From Nitrosopumilus sp. (GTDB lineage Archaea > Thermoproteota > Nitrososphaeria > Nitrososphaerales > Nitrosopumilaceae): 64,000 nt of DNA. The position numbers and the translations under genes were made by a program. Location: NCBI GenBank assembly GCA_965238275.1, contig OZ250186.1, positions 608,001-672,000 on the forward strand. Direction: 5' to 3'. Each line of letters begins with the position of its first letter. Positions within the stretch are counted from its first letter, which is position 1. Under the pieces are notes generated by a model. It did not search any database, had not been told where the DNA came from, and worked only from the letters and a program-made list of their open reading frames with translations. Positions 6,922 to 38,032 of the stretch are shown here, piece after piece.

Positions 6922-8463
6922 TCATATGTATAGCGGCGAGCGAAAATTCGTGCAAACAGATCTCTCTGTAGCGTGTCCTGGTGCTCTTTCCGGCGCTCTG
7001 TCAGACCTTCCAATATTGTCGTCGTTGTCGGGTCCAAGCCGACCTGTCGAATTGTTCATTCCAGAACCATCCGATCCGTGATCCTCGCGCCTTGTGACGA
7101 CCTCGACACCTGCAATGGTGCCTCCACGATTCCCGTGGGCTTGGCCGCCAGTCTCCTCCGTATGGAGACAGTCATTATCCAAAATGTTTTTTGCCGCGTT
7201 CTTGTCGGCATGGTGGCACCATCCGCATGAGACGCAGACAAATGATTCGCCGTTTCTGGACTTTTTGTCCACTATCCCGCAGGCAGCGCATCTCTGGCTT
7301 GTATGTGCGGATTCCACGCGTTTTGTAATTCCGCCCCTCTTTTTCATCTGCCATTCAACTTGGCTCCGAAACTCGCCCATTCTGGAATAGGCCATCTCGC
7401 GGTTCAACCCCGTCTTTGGGGCGGCCCCGTTGGATCTCCTCATCCTGGTCAAATCCAGGTCTTCCAGAGACGTAATCCGTAATTAGTCGTTAGGCACAAA
7501 GTGGGAATAGATGCTAGGCACGAAATGACCCAAAACTGCCTATTACGGATTATGTCTCAGGAACAATACGGACAGTCCTTTTGTTATCCGCCTGGCAATG
7601 TCGGCCTCGTTGTGTTTTTGCCTGTTTGATATCTTTTTCAATTCATGCGTTATCCTGCGGCCGATCTCTTTCCACCTTCTGGAGCCTGGCTGGCATCTTG
7701 ATCTAAATGATTTCAGCTGATCAATCCTGTCGCCGTCATGCCTCTTGCAGCCTCCGGGGACACTGTGCAGTTTTTCATTCCCATGCTCGTCTGCGACTGC
7801 CGCAAGGTGCCTGACTCCAAGATCCAGCCCTGCCTTGCATCCGCGGCCACCGCCTGTCGTGGGTTCGGGGTCTGGGACTTCTATCTGCAAATGCAGTTTG
7901 AATTCGCGATCACCATCCCTGGTCTTGCGCGTGACCTTGCCTGTGGTGTCAATCATCTGGAATGACACGAGCCTGCCTTCTGGAACCCTCGTGCGTGGCC
8001 TTACCTCCCCGAGTCCGGGCAGAAATACGGTGCCGTCGTCCCGCAGTTTTGGCTTTCCGCGTGAATTCAGCGAGCGCAGCCTGGTTGTTTTCCTGCCGCG
8101 CCTCATCAGGCTGGACGGCTCGGTCCACCTGTTGTGCTTGTACGTTTTCTTTTTCCCCAGCTTGATCTGTCTCTTGCGCCAGATGCGCTTGTTGTGCTTG
8201 AGCCGGTTTGCCTTGCGGAATTTGACTGCCGCCTGGAAAGCATGTTTTGAGGCGGCCTCATGCATGCGGACGCTGCTGGCCAGGTTGAATTCCCTGCGCC
8301 ATCCTGTTATCAGGTTGTTGACATCAAACTGTGTGATCCGTGAGTGTGCAAGTTTCATCATGATTGTCATGTCGTAAATGATGTCTGTTTCCCGGGAGCA
8401 TTTCACGATCTTGCGTGACAGTTCCCGAGATTGTGTTATCTTGATGATTTTACTGACAATCAT
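6922..8463 (-). pseudogene. tnpB: TnpB RNA-guided endonuclease (~482 aa when restored), interrupted by a MITE
   Basis: RuvC-I GLDLG, RuvC-II LFL/EDL split by the 93-bp insert, Zn finger CAAC..CVSC, RuvC-III ADKNAAKNI; both halves in the same frame. Confidence 0.92.
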
Positions 8464-8532
8464 ACCTGTAGTTGGGATTTATTTTCTTAAAAAAGGTGCC
8501 CAAAAAATTGCACGAACTTTCGCTTTTCACTA
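6931..8532 (-). mobile_element. Non-autonomous TIR-bounded TnpB element, copy 1
   Basis: Ends tatagcggcgagcgaaaattcgtgcaa (6929-6955) and ttgcacgaactttcgcttttcactata (8508-8534) are inverted repeats (22/27, counting the flanking TA); boundaries agree with copy 2. Confidence 0.85.
7468..7557. mobile_element. 90-bp MITE, copy 1
   Basis: TIR agacgtaatccgtaat / attacggattatgtct (15/16); TSD cag at 7465-7467 and 7558-7560. Confidence 0.92.
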
Positions 8533-8742
8533 TAGAAAAGGCCACAATCCCACGCGGATAGTTGTTAGTGTGTGCTTTTGTGTTTCCAGACAAGCCAATG
8601 TTTATTACATTGTAGATATACCAAATATTGCACCCGCGCTTGTTGCAAGGGAACAGGAATTTTTTGCACGCAGGAGCGTATTTTAATACCAAAATTACCT
8701 ATAAGATATTCCTTTTATTCTAAAAACGCCAATATAAGGTGA

Positions 8743-34575: not shown

Positions 34576-36111
34576 CTATAGCGGCGAGCAAAAGTTTGTG
34601 CAAACAGATCTCTCTGTAGCGTGTCCTGGTGCTCTTTCCGGCGCTCTGTCAGACCTTCCAATATTGTCGTCGTTGTCGGGTCCAAGCCGACCTGTCGAAT
34701 TGTTCATTCCAGAACCATCCGATCCGTGATCCTCGCGCCTTGTGACGACCTCGACACCTGCAATGGTGCCTCCACGATTCCCGTGGGCTTGGCCGCCAGT
34801 CTCCTCCGTATGGAGACAGTCATTATCCAAAATGTTTTTTGCCGCGTTCTTGTCGGCATGGTGGCACCATCCGCATGAGACGCAGACAAATGATTCGCCG
34901 TTTCTGGACTTTTTGTCCACTATCCCGCAGGCAGCGCATCTCTGGCTTGTATGTGCGGATTCCACGCGTTTTGTAATTCCGCCCCTCTTTTTCATCTGCC
35001 ATTCAACTTGGCTCCGAAACTCGCCCATTCTGGAATAGGCCATCTCGCGGTTCAACCCCGTCTTTGGGGCGGCCCCGTTGGATCTCCTCATCCTGGTCAA
35101 ATCCAGGTCTTCCAGAGACGTAATCCGTAATTAGTCGTTAGGCACAAAGTGGGAATAGATGCTAGGCACGAAATGACCCAAAACTGCCTATTACGGATTA
35201 TGTCTCAGGAACAATACGGACAGTCCTTTTGTTATCCGCCTGGCAATGTCGGCCTCGTTGTGTTTTTGCCTGTTTGATATCTTTTTCAATTCATGCGTTA
35301 TCCTGCGGCCGATCTCTTTCCACCTTCTGGAGCCTGGCTGGCATCTTGATCTAAATGATTTCAGCTGATCAATCCTGTCGCCGTCATGCCTCTTGCAGCC
35401 TCCGGGGACACTGTGCAGTTTTTCATTCCCATGCTCGTCTGCGACTGCCGCAAGGTGCCTGACTCCAAGATCCAGCCCTGCCTTGCATCCGCGGCCACCG
35501 CCTGTCGTGGGTTCGGGGTCTGGGACTTCTATCTGCAAATGCAGTTTGAATTCGCGATCACCATCCCTGGTCTTGCGCGTGACCTTGCCTGTGGTGTCAA
35601 TCATCTGGAATGACACGAGCCTGCCTTCTGGAACCCTCGTGCGTGGCCTTACCTCCCCGAGTCCGGGCAGAAATACGGTGCCGTCGTCCCGCAGTTTTGG
35701 CTTTCCGCGTGAATTCAGCGAGCGCAGCCTGGTTGTTTTCCTGCCGCGCCTCATCAGGCTGGACGGCTCGGTCCACCTGTTGTGCTTGTACGTTTTCTTT
35801 TTCCCCAGCTTGATCTGTCTCTTGCGCCAGATGCGCTTGTTGTGCTTGAGCCGGTTTGCCTTGCGGAATTTGACTGCCGCCTGGAAAGCATGTTTTGAGG
35901 CGGCCTCATGCATGCGGACGCTGCTGGCCAGGTTGAATTCCCTGCGCCATCCTGTTATCAGGTTGTTGACATCAAACTGTGTGATCCGTGAGTGTGCAAG
36001 TTTCATCATGATTGTCATGTCGTAAATGATGTCTGTTTCCCGGGAGCATTTCACGATCTTGCGTGACAGTTCCCGAGATTGTGTTATCTTGATGATTTTA
36101 CTGACAATCAT
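34576..36111 (-). pseudogene. tnpB: TnpB interrupted by a MITE (copy 2)
   Basis: Translation identical to copy 1 except for the last few residues. Confidence 0.92.
35116..35205. mobile_element. 90-bp MITE, copy 2
   Basis: Identical to 7468-7557; TSD cag at 35113-35115 and 35206-35208. Confidence 0.92.
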
Positions 36112-36168
36112 ACCTGTAGTTGGGATTTATTTTCTTAAAAAAGGTGCCCAAAAAATTGCACGAACTTT

Positions 36169-37938
36169 GTAATTGTTTCGCTTTTTGAAGTACCCCGGAT
36201 GGCCTAGCGGGCATCCATGGCGCCGGGAATAAATCTAATGATTTCGTGCTCGGGACGACAAAGCTAGACTGTCGTGATCTAAATGTGAGTGGGTGCTAGT
36301 TCCTTCGAGATAGCAAATGAAGAAACCAGCACACCAGACATGCTTGGAGGTGGAGGAATTTAAGGCAATACACGAGCCCTCCTTACACTTACCACAAATC
36401 CTTCCTGATGCCGGGGCGTGCATGAAACCAGAATGCAGGTGTTGTCGGTTCTGGACAAGGGTGCTTGGCGATACGATCGGCTTGACAGGCAAGATCTTGG
36501 AGGCTGCTGCCGCCGAAGTTGCAGGCAGGCCAGGCGCCAACTGCAAGGAGATCGAGGACCTGCAGGCACTCGTCTCATCCCTCACAGAGGACAACAAGAG
36601 GTACGCCAAGGCCAACAGGGAGCTTAACGCCAAGGCCAACAGGATCAACATCCCCACCGTGACCAAGAAAAAGGCAGGCCCAAGGAAGGCCGGCAGGCCC
36701 AAGGGGCAAAAACCCACCATCAACTGCAGGCCAAAACGCGTCGACCGCGTCGAGGAGATCGACTGCAAGGAATGTCCCGACTGTGGCAACGACAATCTTT
36801 CGGACGTGACTGACAGGTACGATCGCATCGTGACTGTCATGCGCGTCATACTGGAAAACGTCAGGTACGTCATCAAGCGGCGCTGGTGCCGCGGGTGCAA
36901 AAAACAGGTCTCTGGAAGGGTTCCCGGCGCGGCAAAACACGCGCGCCGTTCATCAAACTTTGATGCGGCCATGACGTCCCTGAACATGAACGGTTTGTCG
37001 CATGCCAGGGCCGCAGAATTTGGCAGCGACGCGTGGGGGCACAAAATCTCGCGCCCGTCTGCATACCGCGGCAAGATCAGGCAGGCAGAGCGCATGGCAC
37101 CGGAGCGTGATTCTGTAAGAAAGCGCGTGTTAGAGGCGCCACACCTGAACGCAGACGAATTCCACTGGCCGTTGGGCGGCAAACGCGGCTACGGGATAGT
37201 GGCCCTGGCAAAAGACGCCTGCCTCGTGGAGGTGACCGGCTCGTGGGGCATCAAGACGCTTTGCCACACACTCCCGGACTACAAGGGAACCATAACGCAG
37301 GACTCGTATTCAGGATGGCTCCACGTGGGATCGTGCCGCCAGATGTGCGTGTGGCACCAGGAACGCCTGGTGCAAAAGGACGTCCTGACCAACCCCAAAG
37401 GTGACGTTCCAAAGTTTCTGGACAGGCTGTCGGCAATCCACGATAAGATTTATCGCGCATCCAGAATCGAGGACGGGCACACGAGGATCGTCGCGGCCCA
37501 CTGCATAGACGCGGAGCTGCGCGGGCTGATGAACGAACCGTTTGCAGACGATGGGCACGGCACCATCGCCAGACACAAGAAGAGGAACCCCCGGGAGGGA
37601 TACTTTATGACCACCTGCCTGCACGTGGACGGCATCGAGCCGGACAACAACGCAGTGGAGAGGGTCAACCGGAGGTTCGTGGCCATAAGGAGCGACGGGG
37701 GCGGAAACCGCTCCCAGAAGGGCATGGATGCCAACTCGATCCTGTTCACGCTGCTGGCAACTGACAGGATCAACGCGAACAGTTTCTTTGATCATCTGGT
37801 CCGCTCGTCCTCTGGAGACAGTTGAGGCATCATCTGACGGCACGTATGGTGCATCACGGGAAAAAAGATTCCACGGCAAGGGAAAGGCTGCACCTGCTCC
37901 ACTGTTAGGCAGGCCACTTCAAAAAGCGAAACTGTTAC
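36169..37938 (+). mobile_element. IS66-family element (single ORF), 1770 bp
   Basis: TIR gtaattgtttcgctttttgaagt / acttcaaaaagcgaaactgttac (21/23); 8-bp TSD cgaacttt at 36161-36168 and 37939-37946. Confidence 0.92.
36317..37825 (+). CDS. IS66-family transposase
   Basis: Coiled coil, GRPKG, CPDC/CRGC, NADE, TQDSY, QMCVWH, PDNNAVER; start uncertain. Confidence 0.9.
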   Translation: MKKPAHQTCLEVEEFKAIHEPSLHLPQILPDAGACMKPECRCCRFWTRVLGDTIGLTGKILEAAAAEVAGRPGANCKEIEDLQALVSSLTEDNKRYAKANRELNAKANRINIPTVTKKKAGPRKAGRPKGQKPTINCRPKRVDRVEEIDCKECPDCGNDNLSDVTDRYDRIVTVMRVILENVRYVIKRRWCRGCKKQVSGRVPGAAKHARRSSNFDAAMTSLNMNGLSHARAAEFGSDAWGHKISRPSAYRGKIRQAERMAPERDSVRKRVLEAPHLNADEFHWPLGGKRGYGIVALAKDACLVEVTGSWGIKTLCHTLPDYKGTITQDSYSGWLHVGSCRQMCVWHQERLVQKDVLTNPKGDVPKFLDRLSAIHDKIYRASRIEDGHTRIVAAHCIDAELRGLMNEPFADDGHGTIARHKKRNPREGYFMTTCLHVDGIEPDNNAVERVNRRFVAIRSDGGGNRSQKGMDANSILFTLLATDRINANSFFDHLVRSSSGDS

Positions 37939-38032
37939 CGAACTTTCGCTTTTCACTATAGAATGGCCGCCCTAGCTGCTCAGGATCGGCACTATCATAA
38001 ACTTCATATACATTTTCCCAACAGCATTGAGT

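Follow-up and report, generated by a model that had tools for sequence, protein, structure and literature searches.

Results

Two tnpB elements with inverted ends and TA flanks

The window, that is, the whole stretch of DNA analysed here, comprises 64,000 nt of contig OZ250186.1 (positions 608,001–672,000) from the archaeon Nitrosopumilus sp., whose genome (G000) is a single contig of 2,216,668 bp with a completeness rating of 99.9%. It contains two copies of a transposable element whose sole gene, tnpB, lies on the minus strand and is split into two frames in each copy by a miniature inverted-repeat transposable element (MITE). Copy 1 extends from 6931 to 8532 and is bordered by TA dinucleotides at 6929–6930 and 8533–8534. 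In the window sequence, it begins after the first TA with TAGCGGCGAGCGAAAATTCGTGCAA and ends before the second TA with TTGCACGAACTTTCGCTTTTCACTA, an arm whose reverse complement is TAGTGAAAAGCGAAAGTTCGTGCAA. The two arms are 25-bp imperfect terminal inverted repeats (TIRs) that match at 20 of 25 positions, or at 22 of 27 with the TA included. One of them (6931–6955, minus strand) forms the right end (RE), downstream of tnpB, and the other (8508–8532, minus strand) the left end (LE), upstream of the gene. Copy 2 (34579–37958, or 34577–37960 with its TA duplications at 34577–34578 and 37959–37960; minus strand) has ends that are identical in kind and contains the same MITE at 35116–35205. An earlier reading of the window from its letters alone (the sequence-only reading) had described the shared boundaries, the inverted ends and the TA flanks correctly, and its reconstruction of the empty sites as gTAg and cTAg was likewise accurate.

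The tnpB gene of copy 1 starts at an ATG at 8463. Its N-terminal fragment (7543–8463, minus strand) comprises the WED/REC and RuvC-I regions and matches PF01385 (E 5.4e-11), and its C-terminal fragment (6922–7452, minus strand) comprises the end of RuvC-II, the zinc finger, RuvC-III and a tail, and matches PF07282 (E 1.7e-17). A candidate A/T-rich, TATA-like box (TTTTTTAAGAAAATAAAT on the minus strand, 8478–8495) lies ~20–30 nt before the start codon and, to judge from its composition and position, may be part of an archaeal promoter. The MITE is 90 bp in length (7468–7557), has the ends AGACGTAATCCGTAAT and is flanked by a duplicated CAG (7465–7467 and 7558–7560); alignment to an intact copy places the split exactly at the RuvC-II glutamate. 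BLAST returned 13 matches to it in G000, the two window copies included and 12 of them thus outside copy 1. The two TnpB elements differ at only 3 of 1,592 aligned bases, all in the arm at 6942–6949. Both share the disabling MITE but occupy different TA sites; a copy whose tnpB gene was broken must therefore have moved, in agreement with mobilisation by a protein provided in trans.

Genomic copies and duplication of the target site

BLAST searches with the window copy identified ~22 full copies of the element, located at unrelated sites, in the 2.2-Mb genome of G000, which are 75–100% identical to it, range from ~1,490 to ~1,545 bp in length and nearly all lack the MITE. The additional copies predicted by the sequence-only reading, including MITE-free ones, are thus present, and every full copy has the same two ends, so that the variation in ends that would have counted against that reading was not encountered. 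All full copies are flanked by TA on both sides, with the exception of a diverged one (2157229–2158722, ~80% identity) that has TG on both sides, indicating that a non-canonical target is still duplicated.

A clean empty site was obtained by comparison with a second genome of the genus, G017. In G017, copy L154 reads ...ggataaac TA, element, TA cgtccacc..., and the orthologous site in G000 (809516–809597) reads ...ggataaac TA cgtccata..., with the single TA expected for an unoccupied site. Because of this empty site and the TG-flanked copy, the 2-bp target duplication can be regarded as genuine. In addition, two G000 copies have uninterrupted paralogous sites, with exactly 2 nt between the flanks in both. 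At the locus of copy 1, the element is absent from G017 (427 bp versus 1,895 bp between the same two genes); the intergenic DNA of G017 is too diverged at this position for the junction to be read, and the flanks of L147, L153 and other G017 copies gave alignments to G000 with indels and no clean junction. Candidate gene-less mini-elements in G000 (right-end pieces at 35138–35487 and 193617–194030, solo left ends at 1082172 and 1974595) turned out to be truncated copies instead. With its inverted ends and duplicated TA, the ~1.5-kb element is a non-autonomous transposon of the IS630/Tc1-mariner type.

The three differences between the window copies (6942, 6946 and 6949 versus 34590, 34594 and 34597) all fall into the RE repeat. 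Variants of this repeat (GCGAAAATTCG, GCAAAAGTTTG and GCGAAAGTTCG) reappear among otherwise divergent copies, a pattern that hints at ends having been exchanged or repaired and not merely having diverged.

Most copies encode an intact TnpB

Among 19 MITE-free copies examined, 14 contain an intact frame of 479–513 aa. Its Pfam domains are PF01385 and PF07282, and it scores 123 bits on the NCBIfam model for RNA-guided endonuclease TnpB (NF040570, cut-off 100). In an alignment with relatives at 47–56% identity, the catalytic residues D215, E304 and D390 and the zinc-finger cysteines C362, C365, C380 and C383 are invariant, in line with the canonical D-E-D TnpB proposed by the sequence-only reading. 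The best match among solved structures is 9yyg, an AI-designed RNA-guided nuclease (E 1.9e-21), followed by TnpB and TnpB-like chains; the PDB match to ISDra2 TnpB has an E value of 8e-15. As judged from their frames, most copies encode a catalytically intact TnpB.

In G000, the tnpB frame crosses the downstream arm and leaves the element, as it does in copy 1, where it stops in the flank. The stop codon consists of the TA duplication and the first flanking base (TAG or TAA) or is provided by flank codons. In G017, the frame stops 30–32 nt before the element end (87 nt in one copy). The transposase frames of the IS630-D elements described below also terminate within their own repeat (ending in ...CKNF).

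The ends resemble those of a co-resident IS630 subfamily

Six-frame searches of G000 and G017 yielded no matches to Y1_Tnp (PF01797) and none to the resolvase/serine recombinase family (PF00239), under settings to which positive-control genomes responded. Copies with a Y1 or serine transposase between the same ends, which would have spoken against the sequence-only reading, were correspondingly not found. In contrast to these families, DDE_3 has 34 matches in G000, which fall into at least four or five IS630 subfamilies (~1.1, 1.25, 1.43 and 1.45 kb). The genome is unusually rich in transposons for its genus and also contains IS66 elements and MITEs. The only DDE_3 match located inside a copy of the TnpB element (889457–889867) is part of a 1,425-bp IS630-A element that is nested there and has TIRs of its own.

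The closest ends were found in IS630 subfamily D, whose 1.1-kb elements lack tnpB and encode a single 337-aa protein with a helix-turn-helix (HTH) and a DDE domain that scores 172–175 bits on the IS630 family model NF033545 (cut-off 100). The arms of the TnpB elements match those of D-type elements at 15–22 of 25 positions, compared with 10–14 for IS630-B and 4–10 for IS630-A and IS630-C; the two arms of one D element match each other at only 15–19 of 25. The polarity is consistent: the arm upstream of tnpB has its best match in the 5′ TIR, upstream of the transposase gene, of an IS630 element in genome G194 (20/24), and the downstream arm has its best match in the transposase-downstream, or 3′, TIR of the G000 element D1 (also 20/24). 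D1 (1873253–1874348) has the ends TAGTGACGCGCAAAAGTTTTGACAA and TAGTGGCGATCAAAAGTTCTTGCAA, each preceded by TA, and lies inside a (GTA)n run whose phase is kept only if one TA is removed; D2 and the G017 relatives start with TAC directly after the TA. G000 holds one D1 and one intact D2 element, as opposed to ~22 TnpB elements.

IS630-D matches are absent from most genomes sampled within the genus, 67 out of 81 at E 1e-30. Among these 81 genomes, TnpB at ≥46% identity and IS630-D at ≥63% identity both occur only in G000 and G017, a co-occurrence that is suggestive rather than a test, as the two are kin and not independent. Within 301 genomes of the class, one more, G400, has an element with the same ends. 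The IS630 transposase with the same TIRs that the sequence-only reading anticipated is therefore represented by elements with homologous ends and TA duplications in the same genomes, whose TIRs are similar at 15–22 of 25 positions rather than identical. Together with the shared MITE at two sites, these homologous ends and TA duplications support its central proposal of a tnpB gene in an IS630-type non-autonomous transposon, and the element has very probably been moved in trans.

An invariant C next to the left-end TA

When flanking bases are read in the sense of tnpB, the base next to the TA at the upstream end is a C in all cases counted: 20/20 in G000, 13/13 in G017 (two subfamilies) and 1/1 in G400. 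In copy 1, it corresponds to a G on the plus strand, so that the TA duplication and this base occupy 8533–8535 (minus strand). At the downstream end, a C is found in 10 of 25 cases in G000 (the 25 including one IS630-D1 end) and in 6/13 in G017. Once the IS630-D1 end is dropped, the contrast between 34/34 upstream and 16/37 downstream ends is highly significant (Fisher p 2.5e-8). Transposase-bearing IS630-D elements have a C at only 3/7 upstream ends, one of which is uncertain, and a 13-copy IS630 relative in G194, a genome without such a TnpB, has it at 1/13 at each end. The IS630-A and IS630-C rows were not used as flank controls, their conserved flank columns showing that the TIR definitions were evidently a few bases short.

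The C is also contained in the empty sites and is thus a property of the target. It is retained across three TnpB subfamilies with different repeat sequences. A palindrome at the left junction (CTATAG), considered as its cause, was rejected, as subfamily a of G017 keeps the C in a non-palindromic junction (CTATAC). Two bases further out, T predominates in the upstream flanks of G000 (16/20) and A in those of G017 (9/13); this position provides weaker evidence, T also being frequent in the downstream flanks of G000 (14/25). The preference for CTAG stated by the sequence-only reading therefore stands for the C at the left end (34/34), whereas a symmetric CTAG does not, the base at the right end being variable.

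A predicted guide RNA scaffold reaches into the terminal repeat

For 13 copies belonging to three subfamilies, the final 280 nt were aligned and folded with RNAalifold, which returned 55 base pairs in 11 helices, 22 of them (22/55) with compensatory changes. Overall, 96.9% of the alignment cells can pair as predicted, and the covariation score of 0.397 was reached by none of 500 shuffles; when partners were slid by 1–3 columns, the score fell to 0.05–0.12. In one helix (helix 11), an upstream segment forms pairs with the inner portion of the terminal repeat, so that the repeat would be constrained by both the transposase and the RNA. The covariation suggests that the last ~250 nt constitute an omegaRNA scaffold that ends at the right end of the element and has the structure expected of such an RNA. 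In copy 1, this predicted region (6929–7208, minus strand; the last ~250–280 nt) overlaps the non-conserved C-terminal tail of the tnpB frame, with the RE TIR providing the 3′ end of both. The protein tail following RuvC-III is poorly conserved, though the DNA that encodes it is structured. The sequence-only reading had named tnpB as the only cargo; it is indeed the sole gene, but a structured RNA appears to be on board as well.

Contigs assembled from RNA libraries (four runs from two studies, one of them labelled sponge metagenome) contain the MITE-free element at ~93–97% identity. Contig X1 spans 6929–8535 and X2 6929–8364 of the MITE-free form; X5 and X6 cover parts of it. At both element ends, these contigs enter flanks unlike those in the window, so that related populations have the element at other sites.

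Related TnpBs reside in other inverted-repeat elements

In a collection of 5.8 billion proteins, homologues at ≥46% identity were found on a handful of contigs of 1.9–2.5 Mb, the next sequences having ≤31% identity, and a scan of species-representative genomes with conserved peptide patterns yielded, besides G017, only one spurious match (27%). A maximum-likelihood tree was built from 28 TnpBs of the class, leaving aside fragments, the broken G400 copy and rows L166, L169 and L183. In it, the IS630-type TnpBs form a clade (100/100) inside a 12-member Nitrosopumilaceae group (97/97), and the TnpBs adjacent to Y1 genes are placed in the other main branch. Six of the other nine group members were checked, and all are solo TnpBs between inverted ends that start with GGGAATTAYATAC; the remaining three are L160, L167 and L168. 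In copies with such ends, 8-bp duplications were read in G183, G384 and G287. The nearest relatives are the solo genes L098, L101, L104 and L107 (G183; 27–39% identity by BLAST), L066–L086 (G056; 32–41%) and L161–L164 (genus g61; 93–189 bits on the profile). Elements with GGGAATTAYATAC ends reach up to 10 or more copies per genome, and 8-bp duplications were seen in the G183 copies, L162 and L163.

None of 11 Nitrosopumilaceae loci examined has a Y1 or serine recombinase gene beside tnpB, and a Y1 gene adjoins 3 of 16 more distant TnpBs of the class. This lineage of Nitrosopumilaceae TnpBs seems to live in DDE-type vehicles generally. Since the sister TnpBs are themselves bounded by inverted repeats with 8-bp duplications, the ‘capture by IS630’ may have been a change from one DDE vehicle to another instead of a capture out of an IS605 or IS607 element. 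The independent capture postulated by the sequence-only reading does not follow from the present data, in which the clade lies among TnpBs from such elements.

Nested insertions in the window copies and elsewhere

Copy 2 is interrupted in its LE TIR, the arm upstream of tnpB, by a 1,770-bp IS66-family insertion sequence (36169–37938, plus strand) with GTAA... ends and an 8-bp duplication (CGAACTTT, 36161–36168 and 37939–37946). It encodes a 502-aa transposase (36317–37825) that matches Pfam DDE_Tnp_IS66 (E 3.5e-14) and scores 135.5 bits on NCBIfam NF033517, below the cut-off of 180. This insertion is a later event and no part of the TnpB element, and it probably immobilises copy 2. The MITE has entered TnpB elements at least twice and at different positions: the window copies have it at the RuvC-II codon, the copy at 1821559–1823163 shortly before the ATG. 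Its 3-bp duplications include CAG, CAT and CTG; one example of a match is located at 1821626–1821720 in G000.

Discussion

The element described here is, in our view, very likely a non-autonomous transposon of the IS630/Tc1-mariner type with 25-bp ends that houses a complete OMEGA module, consisting of TnpB and an omegaRNA scaffold within its last ~250 nt, an assessment that includes the proposed movement in trans and the guide-dependent steps. In this model, the IS630-D transposase would bind the ends of the TnpB element and move it by cut-and-paste in trans into a TA. Transcripts that start at the internal promoter would continue past the right end, such that each copy uses its own right flank as guide. 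The TnpB-omegaRNA complex could then cut unoccupied alleles, in which the left flank, the TA and the right flank are contiguous, and recombination with an occupied copy would restore the element after the empty allele has been cut. The one-sided C provides a possible link between these steps. If the transposase complex is symmetric, it should have no means of telling which end adjoins the C, and for this reason we read C-T-A as the core of the target-adjacent motif (TAM), which may have the form ~N-C-T-A, with the duplication inside it, as described for Fanzor. At the occupied right junction, the position that corresponds to this C holds an A, which may spare the element from self-cutting.

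More tentatively, and with somewhat less than an even chance of being right, we propose that the C reflects survivorship, with only those of the random TA insertions by a cut-and-paste DDE transposase that place the TAM of this TnpB beside the guide-encoding flank persisting or spreading, and that a Nitrosopumilaceae TnpB lineage without a Y1 or serine partner switched between at least two DDE vehicles, an IS630 element with TA duplications and the GGGAATTAYATAC-ended element with 8-bp duplications.

Several points weigh against the model as a whole. Excision of IS630-type elements normally leaves behind a break or a footprint, so that a simple scheme of restoration upon excision loses force, and homing into alleles that were never occupied must be assumed. 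A composite element combining tnpB with an IS630 transposase was not seen, and no transposase element with exactly the ends of the TnpB element was found in G000, so that cross-recognition is an assumption as well. The RNA-library contigs may be DNA carry-over and show neither transcript ends nor strand; they are not evidence of transcription.

The most serious competing explanation accepts an IS630-type element moved in trans and attributes the C to the target choice of an asymmetric transposition complex rather than to a TAM or to selection by TnpB. IS630 itself prefers CTAG, the right-end flanks of the TnpB elements are enriched for C or G (20/25), and the LE repeat deviates from the RE repeat at 4 of 25 positions in G000 (21/25 identical) and at 4–6 of 25 in G017, so that the complex could tell the two ends apart. 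On the other side, transposase-bearing IS630-D ends have the C in only 3/7 cases, a control that is small and includes one uncertain end, and neither the 13-copy G194 relative (1/13 at each end) nor IS630-B shows a C asymmetry. The persistence of the C in three TnpB subfamilies with different repeats also speaks against this explanation. On balance, we consider an asymmetric complex unlikely as the source of the C, though more credible than the other alternatives. A different objection concerns the identity of the mover, which could be a DDE transposase other than the IS630-D proteins seen here, either lost or present in another strain, with the similarity of the ends reflecting common descent only. 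Consistent with this idea, the best TIR matches reach 20–22 of 25 without being identical, the closest left-end match comes from another genome (G194), and a single D1 and a single intact D2 element face ~22 TnpB elements in G000. Conversely, only two of the 81 genomes of the genus contain either the close TnpB clade or close IS630-D elements, and each of these two contains both, the ends of one IS630-D element are no more similar to each other than to those of the TnpB elements, and the near-identical window copies (3 differences) point to recent movement in G000, making a missing mover improbable.

An assignment to the canonical IS200/IS605 (Y1) or IS607 (serine) families, with ends that merely appear inverted, might be suggested by the fact that TnpB-only elements of the IS1341 type are the commonest setting of tnpB. 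The protein also has sub-threshold matches to NCBIfam IS607_TnpB (89.5 bits, cut-off 350) and IS200_TnpB (58.4 bits, cut-off 425). This explanation is already contradicted by the 2-bp duplication, as established by the empty orthologue and the TG-flanked copy, by the homology of the 25-bp repeats to IS630 ends and by the lack of Y1 and resolvase genes in two complete genomes. Moreover, the Y1-adjacent TnpBs of the class belong to the other main branch of the tree (97/97) and have an N-terminal HTH domain not detected here. Membership of either family would entail its TnpA (a Y1 enzyme in IS200/IS605, a serine recombinase in IS607) and the absence of TIRs and of a duplication, and the element departs from both in each respect; the probability that it belongs to one of them is close to nil. 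The model of an IS630-type vehicle with an OMEGA module thus remains the one we favour.

TnpB-only elements of the IS1341 group (IS200/IS605) and their PATE derivatives resemble the present family in having tnpB as sole gene, many copies and a transposase encoded elsewhere. IS1341-group elements have asymmetric ends with subterminal hairpins, make no duplication and depend on a Y1 TnpA, whereas the present family has TIRs, a TA duplication and no Y1 gene in its genome. Stowaway-type and IS630-derived MITEs are likewise non-autonomous and outnumber an autonomous IS630/mariner partner, with which they have the TIRs and the TA target in common, but they are gene-less, whereas the present element carries a 480-aa nuclease gene and a guide RNA.

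The association of prokaryotic TnpBs with DDE transposases has been described before. In the parts of their study that we draw on, Altae-Tran et al. (2023, PNAS, PMC10691335) report inverted repeats for all six DDE-associated groups, a DDE-6 branch in which symmetric ends enclose TnpB, an IS630 transposase and a separate HTH protein, and solo TnpBs whose flanking ends are nearly identical to those of elements with a transposase, which they read as evidence of mobilisation in trans. As far as described there, these systems share with the present one a prokaryotic TnpB, symmetric IS630-type ends, a TnpB 3′ end <250 bp from the transposon end and the existence of solo forms. Unlike DDE-6 as presented in those parts, the present family includes no copy with its own transposase, its partner is a bare 1.1-kb IS630 element with a single HTH+DDE protein, and its host is an archaeon; none of the full copies combines tnpB, an IS630 DDE gene and a separate HTH gene within one pair of ends. 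On the strength of these parts, the TnpB–IS630 link and solo TnpBs mobilised in trans have been known since 2023, and the present family is an archaeal variant, less novel than the sequence-only reading held; the tables and locus files of that paper might already include this clade.

A comparable arrangement is found in Fanzor1, which resides in Tc1/mariner-type transposons of eukaryotes and giant viruses (Bao & Jurka, 2013, PMC3627910; Yoon et al., 2023, PMC10711439, both as far as available to us) and, according to section 6.2 of a recent review (PMC13565253), uses a TAM that includes the 5′ duplication. To the extent covered by these sources, both systems comprise an RNA-guided TnpB-family nuclease carried along by a DDE element that moves by cut-and-paste and has TIRs and a TA duplication, with a guide-RNA scaffold, predicted in the present case, running through the TIR; a 5′ duplication within the TAM would be a further common trait, if our reading of the present element is correct. 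Unlike Fanzor1 as portrayed there, the protein is an ordinary prokaryotic TnpB from an archaeal host, and the likeness drawn here is one of element design. The consulted portion of a survey of thaumarchaeal mobile elements (PMC6563490) keeps IS630 and IS200/IS605 apart in its listing and leaves TnpB unmentioned. Our literature search pairing TnpB with Nitrosopumilus returned no paper, and a search of titles and abstracts for TnpB together with DDE transposase, target site duplication and TAM returned nothing on IS630-type elements of archaea; neither the one-sided C nor the sister clades that make 8-bp duplications were found in print. In the sections of PMC13565253 (2026) at hand, TnpB–DDE associations are called rare and their benefit unclear.

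Annotations that file every tnpB gene under ‘IS200/IS605’ mislabel elements of the kind described here. The protein itself would be a compact nuclease with a short TAM that probably contains C-T-A. TnpB is the ancestor of Cas12, and its biology is known nearly exclusively from IS200/IS605 and IS607 elements, which excise scarlessly. With its many recent copies and its separate, identifiable transposase partner, the archaeal family provides a clean natural case in which to ask how TnpB serves a cut-and-paste DDE transposon. Its guide RNA must share sequence with the repeat that the transposase binds, and its one-sided target signature can be converted directly into experiments. If the C is indeed the footprint of a TAM, it would be evidence from nature that a prokaryotic DDE transposon gains from the cutting of empty alleles under omegaRNA guidance.

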